A DNA stretch of 64,000 bases from Thermodesulfobacteriota bacterium (GCA_963422265.1 OY729416.1:1088001-1152000); one strand, 5' to 3'. Numbered from the stretch's first letter, positions 16,008 through 29,526 are shown. Notes: generated by a model not told the origin, from the letters alone. A program made the numbers and translations.

Positions 16008-17495
16008 TCAGTACATATCCCCCAAACCTGCTTTTTGTATAGGATGCTCTCTATATGATTTGGTTCCGGGCTCTACGCAAGTTCGCGGGGTTGGAAAAAC
16101 CTTGCCAGGATTGCATAGCCCCTTATAATCAAAGGTGCATCTGATTAGATTCATGGTATCAAGGTCCTCTTCATTAAACATAAGAGACAAGAACCTCTTC
16201 TTATCATATCCGACCCCATGCTCTCCTGTAATGCTTCCTCCGGAATCAACGCAAACTTTCAATATATCACCCGCGAGTTCAAGGGCTTTTCCGGTCTCAC
16301 CCTCATTTGAAGCGTCGTAAAGCACAAGTGGGTGAAGGTTACCATCTCCCGCATGAAACACGTTAGCTACTTTAAGACCGTATTTCTTGCTCAGTCCTTT
16401 GATTTCTTCCAGAACCTTAGCGAGTTTGCTCCTCGGTATAACGCCGTCCTGGACGTAATAATCCGGGCTAATGCGTCCCATAACTGGAAAAGCACTCTTT
16501 CTACCCTTCCAAAAAAGGTTTCTTTCCTTATCGTCTTTGGCAACCTTTACCTCAAGAGCATTGTTTTGTCTAAGAACTTCCATGACTATAGGAGTCTCGG
16601 CATTCACTTCGGCGGTCGGACCATCCAGCTCAACCAAAAGAATAGCCCCAGCGTTTACTGGGTAGCCAGCACCTACGACTTCTTCCACGGATTTAAGGCA
16701 TAGACCATCCATAATTTCCATACCCGCCGGTATTACTCCCCTTGCGGTTATTCCTGAAACGGAAGCCCCAGCCTGCTCAATCTTATCGAAGGAAGCTAAA
16801 AGGGTTTTTATGGATTCAGGTCTCTTTACAATTCTCAAAGTTACCTTCGTTACTATTCCCAAGAGACCTTCCGAGCCTACTATAAGACCAAGCAGATCGT
16901 ATCCGGGGTTATCGAGAGTTTTACCTCCCAACTCAATTATTTCGCCGTCTGGGAGAACAATCTCTACGCCCAGAACGTGATTTGTGGTTACTCCATACTT
17001 GAGACAATGCACACCACCTGAGTTCTCCGCCACGTTACCCCCTATAGTGCAGACGATCTGGCTCGAGGGATCAGGAGCGTAGTAATAGTCGTTAGCACTC
17101 ACCGCGTTTGTAACCCAGATATTTACCACGCCGGGCTCAACTACGACGCGCTGGTTAGGTATATCCACCTCCAGAATCTTATTCATGCGGGTTAGCGAAA
17201 TCACAATACCCTCTTCGGTGGGAAGCGCCCCTCCAGAAAGACCCGTCCCCGCCCCTCTGGGCACGTAAGGAATTCCCTCTTCATAGCAAAGCTTTATGAC
17301 GTTAGAAACTTCTTTGGACGTCTTAGGAAGAACTACGAATATAGGCTTTACTCTATAACCAGTAAGTGCGTCGCTGTCGTATGCTATAAGCTCGTCCTCA
17401 TAAGATATAACGCCGTCGGCGCCAAGTATGTGAACTAGCTTGCGCTCAAATTCCCTTTTCCAAGTTGGCGATTTTGTTTTTTGTTGAGATGACAT
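16008..17495 (-). CDS. glcD: Glycolate oxidase subunit GlcD
   Basis: RGAGTGLSGG, APDPSSQ, HCLKYG, HAGDGNLHP, GEHGVG. Confidence 0.93.
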   Translation of the reverse strand: MSSQQKTKSPTWKREFERKLVHILGADGVISYEDELIAYDSDALTGYRVKPIFVVLPKTSKEVSNVIKLCYEEGIPYVPRGAGTGLSGGALPTEEGIVISLTRMNKILEVDIPNQRVVVEPGVVNIWVTNAVSANDYYYAPDPSSQIVCTIGGNVAENSGGVHCLKYGVTTNHVLGVEIVLPDGEIIELGGKTLDNPGYDLLGLIVGSEGLLGIVTKVTLRIVKRPESIKTLLASFDKIEQAGASVSGITARGVIPAGMEIMDGLCLKSVEEVVGAGYPVNAGAILLVELDGPTAEVNAETPIVMEVLRQNNALEVKVAKDDKERNLFWKGRKSAFPVMGRISPDYYVQDGVIPRSKLAKVLEEIKGLSKKYGLKVANVFHAGDGNLHPLVLYDASNEGETGKALELAGDILKVCVDSGGSITGEHGVGYDKKRFLSLMFNEEDLDTMNLIRCTFDYKGLCNPGKVFPTPRTCVEPGTKSYREHPIQKAGLGDMY

Positions 17496-17638
17496 AGCAT
17501 TCAGTTAAATACTTAGCTAGCGATACTGTAATCTCACCTTGAATGCCAATACTACTGATACTAAATTGGACTATGGATAAGCAACAACTCACCCTATAAC
17601 ATTCAAATTATACTCAATTACAATTGATATAACAGGAA

Positions 17639-19069
17639 TTGTTGAATAGAATTTCAATTGGGCAGGTTGATGATCCTATGCTCACAAAGGAACAAATCAG
17701 CTACTACAAAAACCGGAGTAATGGAGAGTTGGCACGATTTGTTAAAACCAACTCAGATAATAAAAGTATTCTCTTTATCTTAAAGAATCTCGGGCATCTC
17801 CCCCAACATTTTGATGATGCTTGGATAGCCCCCTTGCTTTCAAGTTGCAATCAAAAAATCCGTCTCTGGTCCGCAAAAACCTTGGGAAAGACAAGGAAAG
17901 AGAAAAATGTGCAGATACTACTAAGAACGGCGTTGCAAGATGAATCGACGGAAGTGAGACGCGAAGCGGTTTCTTCAATAGGAAGGCTAAAAACGGAGAT
18001 GATTATTCCCGTCTTGCTTGAGTTTCTGGATGACGGCGACCCAAAAATCGTTCTGCAGGCAATCAGAGGACTTTTGACTTTTAAGAAAAACGCGGACGTA
18101 AGCGAACGGCTTAAATCCTTGCGCAATCACCCAAATGAAACGATTCAAAAGTTAATCGAAAAAGAATACTTTACGTCAAGTTCAGCACCCCGCGTTCCAA
18201 TACAAGCGCATAGAGATTCTTATGGCTTTTTGAAAAACGTAGTAGTTCTTGGGGACGTCCGAGAGGCATTAAGTTACGTTCCAGATGAAAGTCTTCACCT
18301 TACCTTTACTTCTCCACCTTATTATAATGCAAGGGACTATTCAATTTACAAAAGCTACCAGGAATACTTAGGCTTTCTCGAGGAAGTATTTCATCTCACT
18401 TATCAGAAAACAAAGGAAGGGCGTTTTCTGATAGTTAACACTTCGCCGATTATTATTCCGAGGGTTAGCCGTCAGCATTCCAGCAAGAGATACCCCATTC
18501 CTTTTGATGTCCATGGTCTCCTAGTCAAAATAGGCTGGGAATTTATCGACGACATCGTATGGGAAAAGCCGGAAACAAGCGTAAAAAACAGGAACGCGGG
18601 GTTCTTACAACATCGCAAGCCTTTGGCATATAAACCCAATGCCGTAACTGAGTACTTGATAGTTTATAGAAAGAAGACCGATAAACTGATAGATTGGAAT
18701 ATAAGACAATACGACGGAAAAACCGTAAACGAGAGTAAAATTGAGGATGGATACGAGACTTCAAACGTTTGGAGAATAGACCCCAAGCACGACAAGGTTC
18801 ATTCAGCGGTGTTTCCCGTCGAGTTATGTGAAAGAGTCGTAAAATACTACTCATTCAAAGGGGATTTAGTCTTTGACCCGTTCGCTGGCAGTGGGACGTT
18901 TGGCAAAGTGGCAAAAAATCTCAGTAGGTTTTTCTTTCTCGCAGAAAAAGAGCCGAAATACTTTAATTACATGAAGACAATTCTCACCACAGGAAATATG
19001 TTTGAGGAAGAAAAATCTAAAAGTAATTTTTTGACGCTTAATGAGTTTATAAAGAGTGTGAACAATTGA
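17639..19069 (+). CDS. Site-specific DNA methyltransferase (N4-C/N6-A, beta class) with N-terminal HEAT repeats (start may be 17678)
   Basis: IRLWSAKTLGK, EVRREAVSSIGR and KIVLQAIRGL HEAT units; TSPPY, HSAVFP, DPFAGSGT. Confidence 0.9.
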   Translation: MLNRISIGQVDDPMLTKEQISYYKNRSNGELARFVKTNSDNKSILFILKNLGHLPQHFDDAWIAPLLSSCNQKIRLWSAKTLGKTRKEKNVQILLRTALQDESTEVRREAVSSIGRLKTEMIIPVLLEFLDDGDPKIVLQAIRGLLTFKKNADVSERLKSLRNHPNETIQKLIEKEYFTSSSAPRVPIQAHRDSYGFLKNVVVLGDVREALSYVPDESLHLTFTSPPYYNARDYSIYKSYQEYLGFLEEVFHLTYQKTKEGRFLIVNTSPIIIPRVSRQHSSKRYPIPFDVHGLLVKIGWEFIDDIVWEKPETSVKNRNAGFLQHRKPLAYKPNAVTEYLIVYRKKTDKLIDWNIRQYDGKTVNESKIEDGYETSNVWRIDPKHDKVHSAVFPVELCERVVKYYSFKGDLVFDPFAGSGTFGKVAKNLSRFFFLAEKEPKYFNYMKTILTTGNMFEEEKSKSNFLTLNEFIKSVNN

Positions 19070-19977
19070 CGCTTACAAAACAGGTTACAAAGAGCATCAT
19101 CAAAAAACTCCTCAAGGGCGAGGACTACAGAATAGAAGTAATTACCCTTATAAACGCCGAATTTTTGCAATTTGCGATAGGATTTTTCAAGAAGGTGATC
19201 GATTCAAAGCTGAATAATCAAGGGGTAACTATTGATTGGTATAAAAGGGAATTCCTTGCCCCTGCACTTCCCAAAGAAGACATAGCGATAAACTCCGGGC
19301 TAAACATGAAGACTATAAGCAATATGTTTAATTCGGCAAGAAAAGAGATAGTTATAGACGCCTCAAATAATCACTATGACGCTTTGTATGAATCAATTAA
19401 GGGTCTTGTAGATTCAGAGGAAGACCTTGATCTGACACTGACGCTAAAGTTTCAGGGCGTAAGCGTGGATTTGAACGTAAGTGAGACCCTAATAATAATT
19501 AACACGCTTGCCGTTAAAAGAGCGGCGTTAAGGGGTGGGTTCTGGAGTACTGCCGGCAAGAGAGTAGAGAAGCCACTAATGGAAACCTTATGCAAATTAT
19601 ATGAGGTTCCCGATGAGAATTATAAGTTTGAATTAAAGGGTGCAGATGGAAAAAAAGATTTTACGCGTGAGATTGATTTTTACTTAACCAGGGATAACTC
19701 AAACTATAAATGTGAAGTAAAACTAATGGGCAAGGGCAATCCCGAAAGTGCAGACGCGGTTATCGCAAGAGATAGTAAAGTCTTTATCGCTGATAAACTG
19801 TCCGATACCAACAAAAACCAACTTGATAGCCTAAGCGTGGAATGGGTTGAATTAAGAGCCACCAATGGCTTTCAAAAGTTTAAGACGTTACTAGAAAATC
19901 TTGAAATACCTTTTAGGGATATTGATTTAGAAAACCTCGAAGCTGACGTTGAAAGAATATTTAGTGAGATTTTTTAG
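19066..19977 (+). CDS. CfrBI family Type II restriction endonuclease
   Basis: WSTAGKRVEK, REIDF...CEVKLMGKGNPESADAVIAR; coupled to the MTase. Confidence 0.82.
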   Translation: MTLTKQVTKSIIKKLLKGEDYRIEVITLINAEFLQFAIGFFKKVIDSKLNNQGVTIDWYKREFLAPALPKEDIAINSGLNMKTISNMFNSARKEIVIDASNNHYDALYESIKGLVDSEEDLDLTLTLKFQGVSVDLNVSETLIIINTLAVKRAALRGGFWSTAGKRVEKPLMETLCKLYEVPDENYKFELKGADGKKDFTREIDFYLTRDNSNYKCEVKLMGKGNPESADAVIARDSKVFIADKLSDTNKNQLDSLSVEWVELRATNGFQKFKTLLENLEIPFRDIDLENLEADVERIFSEIF

Positions 19978-19991
19978 AAGGGAGCTTATGA
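19918..19991 (+). repeat. Direct repeat copy 1 (REase 3' end plus following RBS/ATG)
   Basis: 74 bp, 4 mismatches versus 27846-27919. Confidence 0.92.
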
Positions 19992-20102
19992 CTCTGACAG
20001 AGTAAGTAGTTGTTTTTTTATCTGGATAGCTAATCGGCCTCACCCTAAGAGCACTATGGGCGAATATCTCAGATGGGGTCGCTTGAACAAATTAAAGAGT
20101 GG

Positions 20103-20128
20103 TATCCCCGATCGGGGTCAGGGACATG
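20103..20128 (-). repeat. REP-like palindrome, copy A
   Basis: CATGTCCCTGACCCCGATCGGGGATA; 22/26 identical to 42389-42414. Confidence 0.6.
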
Positions 20129-20160
20129 ATCATCTAGTAGCCTCTACAGGTCGTTTCAGC

Positions 20161-20215
20161 TTGACGGAGGCATCCATAAAAATATATATTTGACGCGCCT
20201 ACGTTTATATACGTA
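20161..20215 (+). promoter_or_regulatory. Putative promoter and operator of mazE
   Basis: TTGACG (20161) with a TATATA/TATATT box, then palindrome TACGT-TTATAT-ACGTA at 20200-20215. Confidence 0.4.
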
Positions 20216-20231
20216 AGGGAGAGATGAAAGT

Positions 20232-20462
20232 ATGGAAGCTAAAGTCAAGAAATGGGGTAACAGTCTTGCCCTACGTATTCCTAAACCCATTGCCCGCCAG
20301 ATTGGTCTCGAACCTGATTATCTAGTTAGGCTGTCCCTTCGCGGCGCAGACTTGACTATACCGCCTGTGCAACGTCCCAATGCTCAACTATATGCCCTCT
20401 TAGCAGGCGTAACAGAGCCTAATTTACACGGTGAAATAGATACCGGACCTGCGGAAGCATGA
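20232..20462 (+). CDS. mazE: AbrB/MazE family antitoxin, no toxin partner
   Basis: VKKWGNSLALRIPK and LLAGVTEPNLHGEIDTG. Confidence 0.85.
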   Translation: MEAKVKKWGNSLALRIPKPIARQIGLEPDYLVRLSLRGADLTIPPVQRPNAQLYALLAGVTEPNLHGEIDTGPAEA

Positions 20463-23400
20463 ATAAAACTTCCGCCAAGGATTTAGTAAAGCGAACGCTA
20501 GAGCATTCTTTTGACAAAGGGCGCTTTGCTTATTTAGTTAAGAATATCCTTAACCATGTTGACGAAGACTCTTTCACCTACCAAGGCAATTTAATATTTG
20601 ATGACTTTGACGATTCTATAGCGAAAGTAGAACGCACAAGCAAATATACTGACCCACAAGATAGACTCCTCGACATTCTGGTTGTCCACCTTAAAAAAGA
20701 AACCTCGCTTGAGCGAGCGCGGACGATGCAAAGAAACTTCGTCGCCAAATACCTTAATGGTAGTCGGGGCGGAGTATTAAAAGACGCCGCGCTTGTAGCG
20801 TTCGTAGCGCCTAATGGTGAAGATTGGCGTTTCTCCTTTGTCAAGATGGAATACAGGTTAGATGAAAAGGGTAAAGTAAAAGAAGAGTTCACTCCCGCCC
20901 GCCGTTACTCATTTCTAGTAGGTAAAAACGAACATAGCCACACTGCCCAGAGCAACCTCTTGCCTCTGCTTTTGAACGATGAAGCGAAACCCACGCTCGC
21001 ATACATAGAACAAGCCTTTAGCGTAGAGCGGGTTACGAAAGAATTCTTTGAAAAATACAGAGAGCTTTACCTACATCTTAAAGAGGCTTTGGATGAGATT
21101 GTAGAGAAAGACCCAAAAATAGAAGCGGACTTTGAAGGCAAAAGCGTAGATACCGTTGATTTCGCTAAAAAGCTTATGGGTCAGATTGTTTTCCTTTACT
21201 TTCTACAAAAGAAGGGATGGTTTGGGGTGGCGAGAGGAAAAGAATGGGGTGAAGGCAATAAGCAGTTTTTGCGACACTTGTTTCCAAGGGCGCAGGAAGA
21301 AGATAAGAACTACTTCAATAGATTTCTAGAGCCATTGTTCTACGAGGCTCTACGATTAGAGCGTCCCAAAGACTATTATGATCAGTTTGAATGTCGTATT
21401 CCGTTCTTAAACGGTGGGCTTTTTGATCCTATAAACGATTACGATTGGCAAGATACGGATATAGAGATACCGAATGAGATTTTCAGTAATAATGAATTAA
21501 CGAAAGAAGGGGATACAGGAAGCGGGATTTTAGACGTTTTCGACCGTTACAACTTCACTGTCAAGGAAGATGAACCACTAGAGAAGGAAGTGGCGGTTGA
21601 CCCTGAGATGCTCGGAAAGGTCTTTGAGAATCTCCTTGATATTAAAGACCGAAAGTCCAAAGGGACTTACTACACGCCGCGTGAGATTGTTCATTACATG
21701 TGTCAAGAGAGCTTGATCAATGCGTTACACGTTAATCTTGATGGAATTATTCCTATAAATGACTTGGAAGCGCTTATAAAACATGGTGATGCTTTTATTG
21801 AGCATGAAGAGACCCGTATTGAAAAAATTGCTAATAGAAAGGCTAAGGATGCAGATTACAAAGGAAGTTACAAGAGGCGGCGGCTTCCAGCTAGTATTGA
21901 AGAATATGCTGAACTTATAGATGATGAACTAGCTTCAATGCGTGTATGTGACCCGGCAGTGGGAAGTGGCGCATTCATAGTGGGCATGATGAATGAGATA
22001 ATAAGAGCAAGAAGGACGCTCGCATCATATATTGACGTGAACAAAGAAGACGCATCTTATCGCTTCAAACGTCACGCAATACAGCACTGCCTTTACGGTG
22101 TAGATATAGATCCCGGAGCGGTAGAAATCGCTAAGCTCAGGTTGTGGTTATCGCTGGTCGTAGATGAGGAGGATAGGGGGAAAATAAAACCTTTGCCCAA
22201 TCTGGACTATAAAATTATTCAAGGTAATTCTCTTTTAAGCGTTGAGAAAGACCTTTTCAACCAAGAGCTGTTTAACCAGCTTGAGAAATTGAAACCGCTT
22301 TACTTCAATCAAACTAATCCAAAGGACAAACAAAAGTATAAAAACCAGATAGATGAACTCATTAGTCATATTACCAAAGGACATAAGGAGTTTGATTTTG
22401 AGGTTTACTTTTCAGAAGTTTTCCATGATGAAAAGGAAGGCTTCGACGTGGTAATAGGCAATCCACCGTATGTGGTGACCAAAGATAATCAGTTGAGGGA
22501 ATTATACAAAGAAGGTATCTACGGTCGGATGAACACCTACGGACTGTTTATCCAGCGCGGCCTGCAATTGGCGCGTAATTTGGGGCAACTGTGCTTCATC
22601 ACCCCAAGAACTTTACTTACAGATAGGTACTTCAGTAATCTCCGCAAAGCTATCAAGAGAAAATCTGAATTAAAGGGCATCGTGCTAATTGCGGACCGGT
22701 ATAACACTTTTGAGAGCGTTTTGCAGGAGTGCATTATTCCGCACCTGGTCAGAAAGCAGACGCCATCCTTGCAGTACGCAGTGAACGCGCGCACCATCTC
22801 AGTACCGACTGACCTCAATGACCCGCAGGCTGCATTTTCGGTAGGTTCGGACCGGGTCCTGCTGGGGAATGAGTTTGACGGGACTTTCTACATAGGCAAT
22901 TCCGAGTTTGATTATCAAGTGTTCGAGCGGATTAACGAGATGGGTGTGAAACTGTCGGCTTTCGGACTCAAGGCCGAGACCGGCAAGATACAATTTGACA
23001 AGTGCCGGGAGTATGCTCAGCCGGACAATTCCAACGATGCGTGCCGGCTGATTTGGGCGGAAAACATACAGCGTTACATCTGTCGGGAATCCCGTCACCG
23101 GGTCGGCAAAGAATGGCTTTCAAAGGCTATCAGATCAGCAGTACGTCCAAATATTACCGGTTTGGGGATTGTGATTCAGCGTATTACCGCCAACGAACAG
23201 CCACGGCGAATCATTGCCACACTGGTAACTCCTGAATACTTTAGTTCGGAAAATGTATACTCTGAAAACCACACGAACTTTATACAGATTAGCGGTCGTG
23301 TAAACAGTGCTTTTTTGTTGGGGGTTCTCAATTCCAGCTTAACAGAGTTCGTGTTCAGAAGATTGAACAGCAATACACAGGTATCAGCGGGAGAATTAAA

Positions 23401-23635
23401 CCTGCTGCCACTTCCACAAGCGTCAGACGAAACCGCTATTCGCGAGATTGAAACGCTCGTTTCAAATCTTATGAAACTGGGTGGTGTTGATTGCCAATCT
23501 GATGATTTAAAACAGGCGGTAGAATATGAACATCAAATCGATATTCTGGTGGGCTCGCTGTATGGAATTACTCCTAGTGAAGTTGAACAAATTCAGCAAT
23601 TATTGCCATCATATAAAACAGTTTATGGAGTATAG
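20459..23635 (+). CDS. Type IIG (Eco57I-like) restriction-modification enzyme / N6-adenine MTase
   Basis: IPFLNGGLF, DPEMLGKVFENLL, GTYYTP, DPAVGSGAF, VIGNPPY, C-terminal target recognition domain. Confidence 0.9.
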   Translation: MNKTSAKDLVKRTLEHSFDKGRFAYLVKNILNHVDEDSFTYQGNLIFDDFDDSIAKVERTSKYTDPQDRLLDILVVHLKKETSLERARTMQRNFVAKYLNGSRGGVLKDAALVAFVAPNGEDWRFSFVKMEYRLDEKGKVKEEFTPARRYSFLVGKNEHSHTAQSNLLPLLLNDEAKPTLAYIEQAFSVERVTKEFFEKYRELYLHLKEALDEIVEKDPKIEADFEGKSVDTVDFAKKLMGQIVFLYFLQKKGWFGVARGKEWGEGNKQFLRHLFPRAQEEDKNYFNRFLEPLFYEALRLERPKDYYDQFECRIPFLNGGLFDPINDYDWQDTDIEIPNEIFSNNELTKEGDTGSGILDVFDRYNFTVKEDEPLEKEVAVDPEMLGKVFENLLDIKDRKSKGTYYTPREIVHYMCQESLINALHVNLDGIIPINDLEALIKHGDAFIEHEETRIEKIANRKAKDADYKGSYKRRRLPASIEEYAELIDDELASMRVCDPAVGSGAFIVGMMNEIIRARRTLASYIDVNKEDASYRFKRHAIQHCLYGVDIDPGAVEIAKLRLWLSLVVDEEDRGKIKPLPNLDYKIIQGNSLLSVEKDLFNQELFNQLEKLKPLYFNQTNPKDKQKYKNQIDELISHITKGHKEFDFEVYFSEVFHDEKEGFDVVIGNPPYVVTKDNQLRELYKEGIYGRMNTYGLFIQRGLQLARNLGQLCFITPRTLLTDRYFSNLRKAIKRKSELKGIVLIADRYNTFESVLQECIIPHLVRKQTPSLQYAVNARTISVPTDLNDPQAAFSVGSDRVLLGNEFDGTFYIGNSEFDYQVFERINEMGVKLSAFGLKAETGKIQFDKCREYAQPDNSNDACRLIWAENIQRYICRESRHRVGKEWLSKAIRSAVRPNITGLGIVIQRITANEQPRRIIATLVTPEYFSSENVYSENHTNFIQISGRVNSAFLLGVLNSSLTEFVFRRLNSNTQVSAGELNLLPLPQASDETAIREIETLVSNLMKLGGVDCQSDDLKQAVEYEHQIDILVGSLYGITPSEVEQIQQLLPSYKTVYGV

Positions 23636-23636
23636 A

Positions 23637-23738
23637 GCGGACACCACCGCTCTGAAAGCCGATATAGACAAGCTGGTCTACACGCTGCTGTACCGGTTGA
23701 CGGCAGGGGAAATTGACATTGTGGAGAGGAAAAGATGA
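23637..23738 (+). pseudogene. Relic C-terminus of another Type IIG enzyme
   Basis: ADTTALKADIDKLVYTLLYRLTAGEIDIVERKR* matches the EIDxLVYxLYGLTxEEIxIVE tail; begins right after the intact gene's stop. Confidence 0.75.
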
Positions 23739-25920
23739 GCACGTCTGAACGGCAAGACACAACCGCCAGAATCCTGGCATTGATTAAGGAAATCACAGCA
23801 AAGTCCTCCGATGGAAACTACATCTACCGCGGTGAACCAGAATGCTACCCTAAAGTATCCTCGACGCTTCACCGCCAATTCGAAGACGTGGATGCGGAGC
23901 ACTTTAATCTGGAGGAAGTCCAGAAGGAGATACTGGAACAGGCCAAGAAATACACATCCGCAACTGATGAGGTGGAAATCCTGACACAACTCCAGCACCA
24001 TGGCGGCAAAACCAACCTTATCGACTTTACAAACGACTGCCACATAGCCCTCTTTTTCGCCTGCGACGGTTCCTATGACAAAGATGGCAGGGTTATCCTG
24101 CTGAAGAAACAAGCAACGGAACAAGGTCATATCAGACAGCCCCGGAACCCTGCCAACCGCGTCATCGCTCAGAAGAGCATCTTTGTGCATCCACCGAAAG
24201 GCTTTATTAGCCCCGATGGTGATCCCATCATCATCCCGAAAGACCTCAAAAAACACATACTGGACCATCTGCAAAGATACAACGGCATATCCACGGAAAC
24301 CATCTACAACGACCTGTACGGCTTTATCAAAAATCAGGGAATCCACCAAAGTGCCTACACGGAGTTTTACAGAGCTTTGACTTATTGGACAAAGGGAGTT
24401 GAATCGGCAGACAAGAAAAAACAACGGGAATTCTATAACAAAGCCATTGAACATTACGCTGAAGCCTTGAGATTGAACCCGAATCTCGCCCCAGCCTACT
24501 GTAACCGAGGAGTCGCCAAGGAAAAACTTGAACGACACGAAGAAGCCATTGAAGACTATAACAAAGCTATTAGAATCTATCCTGAATATGCGGCAGCATA
24601 TTCCAATCGCGGGATTGCCAAAGACAAACAAGGCAAATACGGAGAAGCCATTGAGGACTTCGACAAAGCTATTAGTATCAATCCTAAATATGCAGAGGCA
24701 TATCTCAATCGCGGGACTGCTAAAGATAACCTAGGCAAACACAAAGAAGCCATTGAAGACTTCGACAAAGCCATTAGCATCAATCCTGAATATGCGGCAG
24801 CATATTCCAATCGCGGGCTTGCCAAGCTAAATTTAGGCAAATACGAAGGAGCCATTGAGGACTTCGACAAAGCCATTAGTATCAATCCTAAATATGCGGC
24901 AGCATATTCCAATCGCGGGCTTGCTAAAGGAGAACTAGGCAAATACGAGAAAGCCATAAGAGACTTTGACGAAGCCATCAGCATAAATCCTAAATATGCG
25001 AAGGCATATCTCAATCGCGGGATTGCCAAAGACAAACAAGTCAAACACGAAGAAGCCATAAAAGACTTTAACGAAGCCATCAGCATAAATCCTAAATATG
25101 CGAAGGCATATCTCAATCGCGGGATTGCCAAAGACAAACAAGTCAAACACGAAGAAGCCATAAAAGACTTCGACAAAGCCATCAGCATAAATCCTGACTT
25201 TGCAAACGCATATCTCAATCGCGGGATTGCCAAAGACAAACAAGTCAAACACGAAGAAGCCATTGAAGACTTCGACAAAGCCATCAGCATAAATCCTGAC
25301 TTTGCAAACGCATATCTCAATCGCGGGATTGCCAAAGACAAACAAGGCAAATACGAAGAAGCCATTGAAGACTATAACAAAGCCATCAGCATAAATCCTG
25401 ATTTTGCAGACGCATATTACGCTCGCGGGAATGTCAAAGACAAACAAGGCAAACACGAAGAAGCCATTGAAGACTTCGACAAAGCCAACAGCATAAATCC
25501 TGATTTTGCAGACGCATATTACGCTCGCGGGAATGTCAAAGACAAACAAGGCAAACACGAAGAAGCCATTGAAGACTTCGACAAAGCCAACAAGATAAGA
25601 CTAAATATGCAAACGCATATCTCAATCGCGGGAATGCCAAAGACAAACAAGGCAAATACGAAGAAGCCATAAAAGACTTCGACAAAGCCATCAGCATAAA
25701 TCCTGACTTTGTTGCAGACGCATATTGCAATCGCGGAGAGGCTTGGCTGCACTTGCAAGTATGGGAAAAAGCCAAATCAGACCTGACCAATGCCAAGAAA
25801 AAGGGAGTAGATATAATCGCTTCGTTTCATAACGACTATAAGAGCATTGAAGACTTCGAGCGGAAGAATGACGTTGAGCTTCCGGAAGACATCAAAGCCC
25901 TGCTGATACGAAAGTCGTAA
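23735..25920 (+). CDS. FRG domain plus TPR-repeat protein; frameshift near 25600 (ORF as written stops at 25672)
   Basis: YIYRGE, LQHHGGKTNLIDFT..IALFFA, RVIAQKSIF; about 12 TPRs; repeat register and tail AYCNRGEAWLHLQVWEKAKSDL...LPEDIKALLIRKS* continue in another frame. Confidence 0.85.
24443..25740 (+). repeat. Tandem 102-bp (34-codon) TPR-coding repeats, about 12-13 units
   Basis: Recurrent GAAGCCATTGAAGACTTCGACAAAGCCATCAGCATAAATCCT units. Confidence 0.95.
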
Positions 25921-26214
25921 TGAGTTTTTATAAGCTGAGCTTTTACAATTAATATGCAAAACCTTCTTCCCCCACCTCCCCTATTAACTGTATAACAAAC
26001 CAACGTCTGTGGATTATCGGTCTTAGTTTTTAGTACCCCAAGCTGTGGTTAGTGAGTTCACCAAACCGTTCAGCTCTCCCGCCCTTTTGAAAACCTTACA
26101 AACTTATACTTTTTAGCGATTTTCTGGCTATCTAAAAGATGGTTTGACACGGCTTTAAGTGCTTTTAAGAACAGAAACCCTAATGATTGCAGGGTCTTGC
26201 AAAAGATTTTTGCC

Positions 26215-26264
26215 CGTAAAGTTTTTAATAACTTTTACGAATAACTTTCACGGATAACTCTCAG
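26215..26264. repeat. 13-bp tandem direct repeats plus one inverted copy
   Basis: AATAACTTTTACG / AATAACTTTCACG / GATAACTCTCAG, preceded by inverted CGTAAAGTTTTT. Confidence 0.55.
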
Positions 26265-26417
26265 ATTAAACAACTTTCAAAACGCTATTTAAGCCTTTAT
26301 TTATAGGGGTTTAATGGACGTTTAATGAGATGAATAAGTGTCATATTATACCAACTTGTGCAGTAAAGTTTTTTTAAGTTCGCTTCTTAAATTTGATTTC
26401 TTTAATCCTGTATCAAA

Positions 26418-26448
26418 TCCCCCTTAATCCCCCTTTTCTAAAGGGGGA
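26418..26448. repeat. Short C-run/G-run hairpin element
   Basis: TCCCCCTTAATCCCCCTTTTCTAAAGGGGGA. Confidence 0.55.
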
Positions 26449-26702
26449 AAAGAAAGGGTAACCACCGATAAATTGCTCGTGTTGTTTTTGGCAATGAGTG
26501 CATATTGGAGTCGTCATTTATTTCCTCCGTTCTTTACGTAACCTTTGGGCTAAGCCGACTGAGCACCCGATCAAACGCGCAAGCCCTGACGTTGTAGTAT
26601 TGGGTTAGGATACCACTTCCTCATTTTCATAAGGACATGCTGTGTATATTGCCACCACCAAAATAATTATGCGATCTGCTCCTCGCCTCAACCAATACTT
26701 TT

Positions 26703-26935
26703 GGAAACGTTGATATAGGCGATAAAGTGAAGGAAGAGGCTTATGTGTTTTCTCACCCAAGGGGGGATAGCTCATAGTTTATCGGTTCAAAAGTAGAAAT
26801 CAGGCTCAGAGAGAAAATCGAGCAAATCGGCACACCACTGAAAGAATAGGATATTTCCATTTATATAGGAATACTGACCGGCTACAACAAGGCATTTACA
26901 GTAGATAATCAGACCAAAGAAGCACTGGTTGCCAA
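26703..26935 (+). pseudogene. Relic internal fragment of a Type IIG RM enzyme
   Basis: S*FIGSKVEIRLREKIEQIGTPLKE*DISIYIGILTGYNKAFTVDNQTKEALVAK matches the KIExxGTPLKDWDIxIYRGILTGYNEAF block, with both Trp positions now TAG. Confidence 0.78.
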
Positions 26936-27049
26936 ATACCATCCGTGAACAAGATAGACCAGCTTTTGTAGCTTAAGCGGGCTGATCGGCGTATCTTTCC
27001 CAAATGATAACTTCAATACACTATTGGACGCTTGCAGTGCAGAATACAT
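26909..27049 (-). pseudogene. Truncated Panacea (DUF4065/SocA) antitoxin N-terminus
   Basis: AGGAGG then MYSALQASNSVLKLSFGKDTPISPLKLQKLVYLVHGWYLAT; cut after about 41 codons. Confidence 0.78.
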
Positions 27050-27112
27050 TCTTGGCTACCTCCTAACCCATTTGTGCATACCCTTATCCCTTTAGCATAA
27101 ATATACTGCATT

Positions 27113-27178
27113 ATCTATCAACTCTATGACTTGACGGATGGGGAAATTAAGATCGTAGAAAGTGCGGCAACCGACTAA
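27113..27178 (+). pseudogene. Second relic Type IIG C-terminus
   Basis: IYQLYDLTDGEIKIVESAATD*. Confidence 0.7.
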
Positions 27179-27276
27179 CAAATCCGCACCAACCCAACTG
27201 AGACTGATACGCTGTGCTATATGTCTTATAATTCGATCCGTAAAAAGATCTTGACTTTGAGAGGACACAGATAACT

Positions 27277-27736
27277 ATGAAAGATAAATTAGAGGTCTTG
27301 ATTAATAAGGGTATTCAATTTCTAAAAGAAAAAACTGGGATCAGGCGATCCGGGCTTGTAAGCAGGGCACTGGCTTTAGATCCGCCTTCCGGCAAAAGGG
27401 TACGCCTATTTGGTCATTTCGCTCAGGCTTAGCAAGTGAAGGACGATTGCCAATTATACGTAGGCTATCAAGATCAACCCACAAGATGCTAATGCCTTTT
27501 ACAACCGCGGACTCACTTAGGGTATGAAAGACAATTACGACAAAGCAATCAAAGACTTCGACCAAGTCATCAGTATCAATCCCAAATATGTAGAAGCGTA
27601 TTACAATCGCGAGAATGCTAAATACACACTAGGCAAATACGAGGAAGCTCGTGCAGATTGGCAACGTACCTTAGAGTTAGCAAATAAACAAGGAAACCAA
27701 GAGTTGGTTCAACTCATCCAGAAAAATTTGATATAG
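27277..27736 (+). pseudogene. TPR protein, frameshifted
   Basis: MKDKLEVLINKGIQFLKEKNWDQAIRAC..., AIKINPQDANAFYNRGLT*, YDKAIKDFDQVISINPKYVEAYYNR. Confidence 0.7.
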
Positions 27737-27845
27737 CCTTAATCTTTATAGATTGTCCCTCTCTTCTTAAACTTTTTGTTAAAATGTTCCATTTTATTCA
27801 AAATATTAGTTGAAAAGGCTTAATAACTTCAGCAGGCTTTTTACA

Positions 27846-27919
27846 GATATTGATCTAGAAAACCTCGAAGATGAAGTTGAAAGAATATTTGGTGAGATTT
27901 TTTAGAAGGGAGCTTATGA
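27846..27919 (+). repeat. Direct repeat copy 2 (relic CfrBI-family 3' end)
   Basis: Encodes DIDLENLEDEVERIFGEIF* followed by the same GAAGGGAGCTTATGA. Confidence 0.92.
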
Positions 27920-27982
27920 AGTTGACATAACAAAAACTTCAGCCAGTCTCATCATGGAGCAACCCAGTGGAGAACGTCAGAT

Positions 27983-28969
27983 ATGAAAACGACCAAATTA
28001 GAAAAATTAATCAACTTTACTAGAAATTATTTTAATACTGATCCATATGACATCTCGGAATGCGAAAAAGAATTGACAAAATCAGTCCCGGGCTGGAGAG
28101 ACACTCTGAAAAACCCTAGAAATTGGGAGCGAATAGAAGAGAATCTACCGCTTCGTCATCCCATAGAGGACTTTGAGAGTTCAGAACTATACCTTTACGA
28201 AGGTTTATGGACAATTTTTGTCAGGGCAGGCGGGCGGGAATTAGCAAAAAGATGGTTTTTTTATTCTTGGGATGTGCCGCGACAAGCTTCAAGGAATTGG
28301 CTGATGGATAACATGGACTCCGATATATGGAATGCCCTTGAAGACAAAATGAAAAAGGCATTAATAACTGAAAATTGTTTCCTACCCATGATTCACTTTT
28401 TGCCTGACGTTTATGGTGATGTGAAATATGATAGATCCAGTTCCTACTTGCTTGAGTTATCACGCAGGTATGAAACAACTTACAAAGTTCGCTCTGTCAT
28501 AAAAGAAGCCGGCGATAAAAAATTTCTGCACTTAATGGATTCACTGAATTTTTTTACTTCGATAAAAGAACTGTATAACCCCAATATGTATGAAAAAAGT
28601 TTTATTGACAGGCTAATAGAAAAAATAAGCAAGAATGGATACGATAAATCATCCGATTTACCATCAATCCTCGTTTCTCTCGAGCCCCCTCCTATATTTA
28701 AAGAGCATCCTGAGCTAGAGGAGAGGGAATGTGAAGATATCGAAATGGAGTATTACGATATCGAAAAGTTTCTAGGCGTTTACAAACCCGTTGAAGAACA
28801 GATCGTTATTTATGCAAGAGGAATTACATGGTGGACAAAAAAATATCCTGATTTTGACTCACAGTGGCTATTCTCTGTCGTGCTGATCCATGAAATTGCA
28901 CATTGGATCACCCATAAACTTCCCCACTCAAAAGTCCCCACTTGGCCGACTGAAGTGGAAAGAAGTTAG
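27983..28969 (+). CDS. Hypothetical protein with C-terminal HExxH metallopeptidase-like motif; possibly truncated
   Basis: FLGVY...VVLIHEIAHWITH; a plausible C-terminal tail lies in another frame up to 29120. Confidence 0.55.
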   Translation: MKTTKLEKLINFTRNYFNTDPYDISECEKELTKSVPGWRDTLKNPRNWERIEENLPLRHPIEDFESSELYLYEGLWTIFVRAGGRELAKRWFFYSWDVPRQASRNWLMDNMDSDIWNALEDKMKKALITENCFLPMIHFLPDVYGDVKYDRSSSYLLELSRRYETTYKVRSVIKEAGDKKFLHLMDSLNFFTSIKELYNPNMYEKSFIDRLIEKISKNGYDKSSDLPSILVSLEPPPIFKEHPELEERECEDIEMEYYDIEKFLGVYKPVEEQIVIYARGITWWTKKYPDFDSQWLFSVVLIHEIAHWITHKLPHSKVPTWPTEVERS

Positions 28970-29147
28970 ACATATTGGACTTACACATTTCGAGCCGGGT
29001 AAGGCTTTTGAGCTAGACACAAAGAGAGTAATATGTAAGATAATGAAGCCTCTTGAGAAATTAAGGCGCCTGTCAAAACCAGCTACACTGCAAGATTGGA
29101 AAGATGCAACTGAAAAATAAGCTGACGCATATTACACTCCTGAGAGA

Positions 29148-29226
29148 CTAAGAGCAATTCCAAGTAACGTAATTGACTTTGGAGTCATGTCTCCGCCCTA
29201 TAACAAATAGGAAAAGAATAGAGGGA
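29148..29226 (+). pseudogene. Relic fragment of a beta-class DNA methyltransferase
   Basis: LRAIPSNVIDFGVMSPPYNK*EKNRG (motif IV region). Confidence 0.65.
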
Positions 29227-29526
29227 TATCTTAATTGTGCAGAAGAGCGACTAAAAAATGCCGAAGATGAATTAAGCATGGTAAAAAAAGAACAAGAACA
29301 TCATCGGGTTTCTGAAACCTTTAGGAAAGCGGGAGGAGAGTAACGTAGGGAAGTGGCGCATCTAGCAATACAACAGATGTGAAGATGAAACCTGTATCTT
29401 TAATTCCCTTTACTAACAGAGTAAATATGATAAAGATTCTTGCCAATTTACAAACCGTACTGTTATCAGGGATAACGTCAAAACCATATTATAGTTATCT
29501 CGCTTCAAGAATAACTTAGCTAAGCC

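Follow-up and report, generated by a model that had tools for sequence, protein, structure and literature searches.

Ends of restriction-modification genes as probable homology seams in a nested defence patch of a Thermodesulfobacteriota genome

The component processes that lie closest to the locus reported here are known, namely long target duplication and Rhs displacement. Long target duplication, as described in the accessible part of Furuta (2010, PMC2853133), involves RM (restriction-modification)-carrying inserts of less than 20 kb with a direct repeat of more than 30 bp spanning a stop and a start, an empty site in another strain, RM genes as targets, one of them of Type IIG, and a common 5' part with a different C-terminal part; these features recur in the present locus. 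In Rhs loci, according to the accessible sections of Jackson et al. (2009, PMC2935791), the arrival of a new 3' end by homologous recombination displaces the older ends downstream. How genes gather in defence islands without integrases or transposases is an open question, and no title or abstract was found that describes serial orphan Type IIG tails separating cargo genes, subscription papers being mostly outside the coverage of that search. Here we analyse a window of 64,000 nucleotides (nt) from a Thermodesulfobacteriota bacterium (GCA_963422265.1 OY729416.1:1088001-1152000), whose genome is one contig of 1.78 Mb. The window corresponds to C1:1088001-1152000, where C1 denotes coordinates of the host genome contig; all other numbers are window positions. 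It contains a patch of about 12 kb, with all genes on the plus strand, in the spacer between glcD (minus strand, ending at 17495) and rplM. We conclude, with a probability of about 0.6, that the 3' ends of RM genes act as homology seams for insertion and replacement, without a dedicated integrase.

Families were identified with Pfam, PADLOC and NCBIfam. Much of the evidence comes from comparison with a paralogous locus in the same genome (C1:613779-625057), which encodes a helicase, MazE, MazF, a Type IIG enzyme, an FRG-TPR protein and a recombinase. The features that carry the argument are as follows.

17639-19069, plus strand: intact HEAT-repeat and N6/N4 DNA methyltransferase (MTase) of 476 amino acids (Pfam N6_N4_Mtase 1e-39, HEAT_2; PADLOC MTase_II).
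19066-19977, plus strand: intact CfrBI-family restriction endonuclease of 303 amino acids (Pfam RE_CfrBI 7.5e-23; PADLOC REase_II 3.9e-111).
19911-19991, plus strand: left copy of an 81-nt direct repeat (CfrBI final codons, stop, ribosome-binding site and next ATG), at the left edge of a 7.9-kb block.
20459-23635, plus strand: intact Type IIG gene of 1058 amino acids (PADLOC REase_MTase_IIG 8.9e-239; Pfam Eco57I).
20459-22473, plus strand: conserved 5' part of the Type IIG gene, 97.0% identical to the paralog over 2015 nt (647/671 amino acids).
22474-23635, plus strand: putatively swapped-in specificity region of the same gene, with its own divergent end and stop (best relative in locus L108, 38.6%).
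~23634-23738, plus strand: orphan Type IIG tail 1 (nhmmer E 1.1e-9).
23735-25921, plus strand: FRG-TPR passenger gene (Pfam FRG and TPR; PADLOC PDC-S15; paralog comparison).
26703-26935, plus strand: central remnant of an older Type IIG specificity region (E 6e-24 with a 15-gene model), with two in-frame TAG stops.
About 27099-27172, plus strand: orphan Type IIG tail 2 (27099-27164, nhmmer E 2.8e-9).
27270-27736, plus strand: TPR pseudogene.
27839-27919, plus strand: right copy of the 81-nt repeat, an orphan CfrBI end with ribosome-binding site and ATG that precedes the HExxH gene.
27983-29111 (open frame 27983-28969), plus strand: HExxH gene, delimited against a homolog of 481 amino acids in genome G053.

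The gene at 20459-23635 is a Type IIG RM enzyme, for which methylation and cleavage are predicted only: a single chain carries motif I (DPAVGSG) at 21950, NPPY at 22460 and a C-terminal specificity region. Directly after NPPY the paralog gene switches to a different specificity region, which is 26-30% identical to that of the window gene, in two short stretches only. Whole or part of the stretch occurs in 7 of the 9 sequencing runs listed, from 4 studies; contigs of runs X3, X5, X7 and X1 were aligned to 16900-24380, and X2 (share 0.28), raw-read X8 and X9 were left out. In X1, a second contig holds a paralog-type gene with MazE, 529 extra letters, a 5' part about 95% identical and a third specificity region, which starts like that of locus L086; the L086 family is also that of the relic block at 26703-26935. 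The window, the paralog and X1 therefore carry three alternative starts of a specificity region at one breakpoint after NPPY. X1 has no cover over the window's specificity region (22650-23650), which by itself was not counted as evidence. Loose contig ends at 22439/22473 and 23640/23677, identical or almost so in 3-4 runs, were set aside, as they look like another organism's gene.

The second seam is the CfrBI end, which is duplicated: 27839-27927 matches 19911-19999 with 90% identity over 89 nt. The two copies of the 81-nt repeat, counted over the stretch that ends at the X1 junction, have 6 differences, and their longest identical run is 28 nt. From repeat to repeat the block measures 7,928 nt and includes the fused RM gene. 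A single X1 contig of 62,370 nt follows the window over 16900-19991 (23 letters differ), departs from it at 19991 and continues for about 318 nt, of which the first 30 letters equal the window from 27920 onward. X1 thus presents, in one run only, an empty site bounded by the CfrBI end, in which the 7,928-nt block is missing and CfrBI leads straight towards the HExxH gene. A mis-join is unlikely here because the longest shared run of 28 nt is shorter than the 31-letter word size. In X3 and X5, CfrBI has a second 3' allele (27 other letters over 19661-19977; depth 34.6 versus 48.8 and 21.2 versus 18.9), which differs from the X1 allele (27 versus 23 differences). Its contig leaves the window-type contig unbroken, and the second allele would therefore join the relic-type end. 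As judged from contig boundaries only, the block may have brought a diverged new CfrBI end, as opposed to a simple target duplication. The pair of HEAT-N6/N4 MTase and CfrBI was also found in metagenome loci.

The old ends of both RM genes stand ahead of passenger genes. A DNA profile of 51 intact Type IIG tails (nhmmer) matched the whole genome four times, at the ends of two intact genes elsewhere and in the window at 23634 and 27099; all four matches lie on the plus strand, and no opposite-strand tail was found in this genome. The stop of tail 1 overlaps the FRG-TPR start, the same arrangement as in the paralog, where the stop of an intact Type IIG tail overlaps the start of the FRG-TPR gene. 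Over its first 60 nt, tail 1 shows about 65% identity to the paralog (by eye), and from 23697 on it matches at 93/100, a level shared with the FRG gene (92-97 per 100); this mosaic would fit a crossover inside the tail. The FRG-TPR gene has a frameshift near 25595-25625, which puts its final ~97 codons out of frame. FRG-TPR was rejected as a general partner of Type IIG tails, since 0 of 11 kin loci had a tail or Type IIG match within ~1.5 kb. Tail 2 is followed, after ~100 bp, by the TPR pseudogene.

An earlier note, made from the sequence of this stretch alone, had proposed that incoming DNA recombines into resident RM genes, supplies a new 3' end and pushes older ends downstream; a diverged CfrBI end brought by the block would be such a new end. 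Its intact MTase, CfrBI and Type IIG genes are borne out by profile matches in Pfam and PADLOC, and its relics do align to Type IIG and CfrBI genes, through the tail profile, the 15-gene model and the 90% CfrBI repeat. The unit that it described, an orphaned RM C-terminus followed by a passenger, occurs three times as stated (tail 1 with FRG-TPR, tail 2 with TPR, CfrBI end with HExxH). Its prediction of a shared Type IIG 5' half with different 3' halves agrees with the three starts at one breakpoint. The relic tails that it expected to recur with the same passengers were encountered in the tail-FRG-TPR arrangement of the paralog, in the X1 CfrBI end leading into the HExxH region and in a unit shared by loci L091 and L089 (see below).

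The relic block at 26703-26935 is 52-55% identical to intact specificity regions, those of L086 and L099 being closest, and its 3' limit is the position of an inverted repeat in related shufflons. Together with tail 2, the block derives from a single specificity region that has undergone deletion. A silent shufflon cassette is disfavoured as its identity by its direct orientation and upstream extension. These relics could instead be spent cassettes or crossover products of a decayed recombinase-driven element, that is, of a PLD-helicase/Type IIG locus in which a tyrosine recombinase reshuffles the specificity cassettes, by inversion as in Cj0031-like loci or by excision and reintegration as at the pneumococcal tvr locus, and which integrated at the CfrBI end as a circle. 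We regard this as unlikely. Such a circle of the paralog locus would account for a recombinase fragment upstream of the helicase/MazE remnant in the window. The explanation also gains from kin: homologous tyrosine recombinases lie beside inverted silent specificity cassettes in L086 (L086:10001-16728, with MazE between the cassettes) and L099 (L099:10001-15488), locus L039, from same-order kin, contains an inverted tail and counts likewise among the loci with inverted silent cassettes (L039:4650-4918), and it is to L086 and L099 that the relic block is nearest and at their inverted repeat that it ends. However, the relic block starts ~50 codons upstream of the silent cassette start and therefore looks like a former expressed gene, the four tail matches of the genome include no inverted one, and the 5' borders of orphan tails vary. 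Moreover, of 85 loci only L086 and L099 gave a match to the paralog recombinase, and neither is among the 13 loci with same-strand tail arrays described below.

Repetition of the tail is specific and extends across phyla. Type IIG relatives were taken as the best 80 of at least 516 in a species-level genome set; a closed Type IIG frame was present in 63 of the 80 loci and a canonical tail in 51 of these 63, and the tail counts are based on these 51 loci, with 17 frameless and 12 tail-less loci dropped. Downstream of the gene, 21 extra same-strand tails were found in 13 of the 51 loci (352,870 nt searched), and upstream there were none in 379,030 nt; opposite-strand copies numbered two, both in L086. 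Six other Type IIG segments yielded one downstream same-strand copy altogether, the helicase end none, and motif IV orphans occurred in 1 of 51 loci. The closest relative of 16 of the 21 orphans is the tail of their own locus, and the tail score drops with distance in L075 (138, 126, 102), in L073 and roughly in L089 (170 to 152). A unit of 823 nt, consisting of a tail and DUF433/DUF5615, is 96% identical between L091, where it takes the first position, and L089, where it takes the third; the Type IIG genes of these loci are 85% identical. Passengers between orphan tails comprise DUF433/DUF5615, PemK, Bro-N, AAA_13, YhcG, RVT_1, Piwi with SIR2, and Schlafen AlbA_2. Many orphan tails end 12-100 nt before the next start.

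Plain duplication and erosion could be invoked for the same material: the paralog locus and the second MTase would have been copied into the spacer, random deletions in a small genome would have left fragments, and tails would have survived beside the start signals of the next gene with no role in gene capture. The short distance between many orphan tails and the next start could indeed be a reason for their retention, an intact relative of most relics exists within this genome, and the MTase relic and the HExxH, FRG-TPR, MazEF and helicase genes are damaged without relation to 3' anchoring. Yet this account leaves unexplained the three starts at one breakpoint, the empty site bounded by the CfrBI repeat, the up to six near-identical tails per locus and the almost complete lack of orphans derived from other Type IIG segments, and we consider it improbable, somewhat more so than the recombinase-driven element.

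A wider reading is that the last 30-40 codons of helicase-linked Type IIG genes form a portable homologous docking site across phyla. Units of tail and passenger (toxin-antitoxin pairs, Argonaute-SIR2, reverse transcriptase, nucleases, FRG-TPR) would excise, move and re-enter at an intact tail, giving an age-ordered array without an integrase, and the same seam would switch specificity. We advance this tentatively and think it rather doubtful as a whole; if true, the window would document the process in both its before and after states, with CfrBI as an additional anchor.

The arrays and their host loci differ in form. In the clearest one (L089:7006-15500), the genes set apart by six orphan tails are toxin-antitoxin-like pairs, Bro-N, and an AAA ATPase with a gene of 485 amino acids that has no Pfam family. 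In L073:9334-9698 the tail occurs three times head to tail, with a period of ~123 nt and no passenger between. The core of the L086 gene is 78% identical in DNA to the window gene, and its record is titled Gammaproteobacteria. A third helicase-Type IIG locus of the host genome (C1:191112-198786; L033) is distant, with 27% identity to the window protein, and has an intact tail and a coupled passenger of 327 amino acids.

In the same family, glcD and rplM starts are ~139-195 nt apart in 22/22 loci, with an empty spacer (24 genomes, one without a match and one without the locus), and in other families glcD is at this site in 0/7 loci. The patch is therefore lineage-specific, and the glcD-rplM interval is no family-wide hotspot, which counts against the reading in the earlier note. 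A degenerate rplM pattern gave 0 stretches in metagenome contigs, and no second full copy of the interval was found. At the ends of the whole 12-kb patch, a search for a target duplication returned only 7-12-nt matches at chance level (E >=0.09). A 9-nt exact repeat near both ends (17511-17519 and 29514-29522) is likewise at chance level (E 0.31).

An assembly chimera, between strains or between the two paralogous loci, is suggested by the 97% identity of these loci over 2 kb and by runs with mixed alleles. Single contigs of studies P3 and P4, one of which may be the window's own source, nevertheless bridge the window junctions within the aligned range of 16900-24380. The step from the CfrBI end to the recombinase relic is bridged in X3 and X5 (19661-20291) and X7 (19661-20078), and that from NPPY through the specificity region and tail 1 into FRG in X3 (22370-23796) and X7 (22399-23905); X5 contigs also bridge NPPY, specificity region and tail 1, without reaching FRG. 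Because contigs of two studies bridge them, the checked junctions are not chimeric, and we consider a chimera, which the earlier note had named as fatal to its proposal, extremely improbable.

In the history that we propose for seams at RM gene ends, a first layer of MTase, CfrBI, HExxH and second MTase genes would have entered the glcD-rplM spacer in this lineage only, being absent in family kin. As a second layer, the CfrBI 3' end would have received the 7.9-kb block, which is a shortened relative of the helicase-MazEF-Type IIG-FRG-TPR-recombinase locus; the empty site is observed, and gain of the block, not loss, is our inference. CfrBI would have stayed intact, with an 81-nt copy of its end left before HExxH. 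In the third layer, Type IIG 3' halves may have been swapped at least twice inside the block, with crossovers both within the conserved region that extends to NPPY and within or close to the 30-40 conserved codons at the gene end. Older ends would then have been left before passengers, in the presumed order of relic block and tail 2 before TPR, then tail 1 before FRG-TPR. The machinery was likely ordinary homologous recombination of incoming DNA, either as a double crossover with an orphan tail as second anchor or as one homologous and one illegitimate joint. An orphan tail offers a new anchor, and arrays can therefore grow; the newest unit would be nearest the intact gene. The genome encodes ComEC and DprA.

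Several observations weigh against this reading. Crossovers themselves were not seen, and the presence of competence genes is no demonstration of transformation. A recombinase relic lies at the left edge of the block, the paralog recombinase is intact and 58% and 48% identical to those beside the inverted cassettes in L086 and L099, and the relic block ends at the shufflon repeat of these loci. Five of the 21 orphan tail matches are weak (22-32 bits), the upstream control region is partly occupied by the helicase gene, and kinship and base composition can favour the tail of the own locus. Deletion between the repeats could have produced X1. It has 23 differences, at positions that are not locatable, and the second allele has more (27). 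A second copy of the CfrBI tail was found in 0 of 9 other CfrBI loci, of which 8 are short and only one has more than ~600 nt downstream. Finally, pieces of the block with different identities to the paralog (see below) could mean that it arrived already decayed or was later homogenised.

The remaining features of the patch are wreckage and non-coding DNA.

20013-20109, plus strand: frameshifted tyrosine recombinase fragment (73% over 98 nt to C1:624163-624259).
20129-20462, plus strand: region downstream of the lost helicase, with the MazE antitoxin gene at 20232-20462 (80% to C1:616968-617297; Pfam MazE).
25922-26494, no strand: non-coding, near-identical to the paralog locus, containing a copy of a palindromic repeat (26411-26454).
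26607-26679, no strand: unexplained segment, 73% identical to DNA directly upstream of the paralog recombinase.
~29095-29426, plus strand: second N6/N4 MTase, decayed and internally deleted (start, motif IV and C-terminus remain).

The intact paralog recombinase (C1:623993-625057) matches Pfam Phage_integrase. A PLD-SNF2 helicase, with matches in 79 of 85 related loci, is lost from the window, and MazF is deleted, where the paralog and X1 keep ~0.45-0.53 kb more. The segment at 26607-26679 was rejected as a further Type IIG relic, having no match to the second DNA model, built from 15 related genes. Identity to the paralog reaches only 73-80% in the pieces from MazE, the recombinase and 26607-26679, as against 92-97% in other parts, and the shared DNA therefore has at least two ages. 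The HExxH gene is broken by an internal deletion and a frameshift after codon ~325, with its C-terminus in another frame (28995-29108); its protein has no Pfam, NCBIfam or PADLOC family, and the G053 homolog is the only match besides the window among 120 genomes. The MTase relic is 84% and 77% identical to C1:1644047-1644125 and C1:1644673-1644888, with a deletion of ~0.55 kb, and its intact relative lies at C1:1643987-1644886. In that locus (C1:1643222-1644886; L032), two short frames, the first without an NCBIfam match, precede the intact MTase and look like one frameshifted gene.

This inventory corrects the earlier note in several respects. It had seen no integrase, and the tyrosine recombinase fragment at 20013-20109 contradicts this. 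The relics themselves hold, and it had overlooked MazE with its deleted MazF, the helicase loss, the FRG-TPR frameshift and the HExxH damage. Its MTase motif IV relic is a decayed MTase, as proposed, and represents a near whole gene with an internal deletion, not an orphaned end. Decay does not rise steadily downstream: the intact Type IIG gene has the wreckage of recombinase, helicase and MazF on its upstream side and other wreckage on its downstream side, in a nested arrangement. The integron-like, age-ordered stack gives way to nested layers on two different anchors with no integron integrase. Homology seams at resident RM genes are retained as an interpretation, a single linear stack is not.

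The palindromic repeat of ~40 nt at 26411-26454, which we presume to be REP-like, matches the genome 161 times by BLAST, and 137 of these matches fall in C1:1.6-1.78 Mb and 0-0.1 Mb. It forms a tandem array with a period of ~70 nt (C1:1737219-1738314) directly upstream of a parA/parB-like pair, and similar repeats are embedded in the Type IIG ends of L060, L089 and L091. A non-coding segment of 135 nt (26064-26198) recurs with 82-83% identity at C1:271655, near what we take from translations to be a CRISPR-like array with cas1/cas2-like genes, and at C1:1409068, among presumed phage-like head genes.

If RM gene ends are reusable seams, a short tail profile would mark capture points and delimit cargo units, offering a simple route to mining new defence genes, and specificity change would be linked to cargo gain. 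The model is directly testable here, since the locus offers an intact paralog, a strain with the empty site and three alleles at a single breakpoint.

Among known systems, invertible Cj0031-like Type II RM genes share the same gene pair, with a PLD-SNF helicase, as far as the available part of Milman et al. (2023, PMC9881135) describes them. The paralog keeps helicase and tyrosine recombinase, and L086 and L099 have the full invertible layout, whereas the host genome has no inverted cassette and the window lacks the helicase and retains only a recombinase fragment. The pneumococcal tvr locus, in the consulted portion of Kwun et al. (2018, PMC6265443), likewise has direct-orientation specificity pieces, a toxin-antitoxin pair and a recombinase near the RM gene; it differs in being Type I, with intact reusable specificity regions and shown circles, whereas the pieces here are broken and known from contigs. 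No integron integrase was found beside the array (3 Phage_integrase matches in the genome, 0 in the window), the paralog recombinase is below every NCBIfam cut-off shown, and the seams are coding remnants with variable 5' borders, where an integron would have attC sites that form single-strand hairpins and a fixed crossover point. Homology-facilitated illegitimate recombination, as treated in the accessible part of 10.1101/2020.05.13.090589, with one anchor and a deletion in the resident DNA, would leave a truncated old end such as tail 1 or the CfrBI relic, but it does not predict the repeated survival of the same conserved tail, and no microhomology joint was demonstrated here.

In its workings the region resembles Rhs C-terminal displacement. 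The two share a constant core, exchangeable 3' halves and old ends downstream, all of which were found here, and arrays of silent pieces with intervening genes, as in the MafB arrays covered in the accessible text of PMC2935791. There, Rhs orphans consist of a core fragment and a whole reusable tip, whereas in the present locus nothing but the final 30-40 conserved codons is left. Tail 1 and the CfrBI relic each consist of an end alone, and the older specificity region is deleted and contains stops. In the other loci, most tail events add cargo and not a new tip, and core orphans are limited to 1 of 51 loci. The locus is therefore not a member of the Rhs class, because its orphans lack a reusable tip. 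Long target duplication is matched by the insert of 7,928 nt, the 81-nt repeat with 6 differences and the X1 empty site of one run. For an insert free of other mobile elements or integrases the picture is mixed, with only a 97-nt recombinase relic in the block. The events in the accessible part of PMC2853133 are single, whereas those reconstructed here would be serial and nested, with diverged repeat copies, and in other genomes the same tail is reused up to six times.

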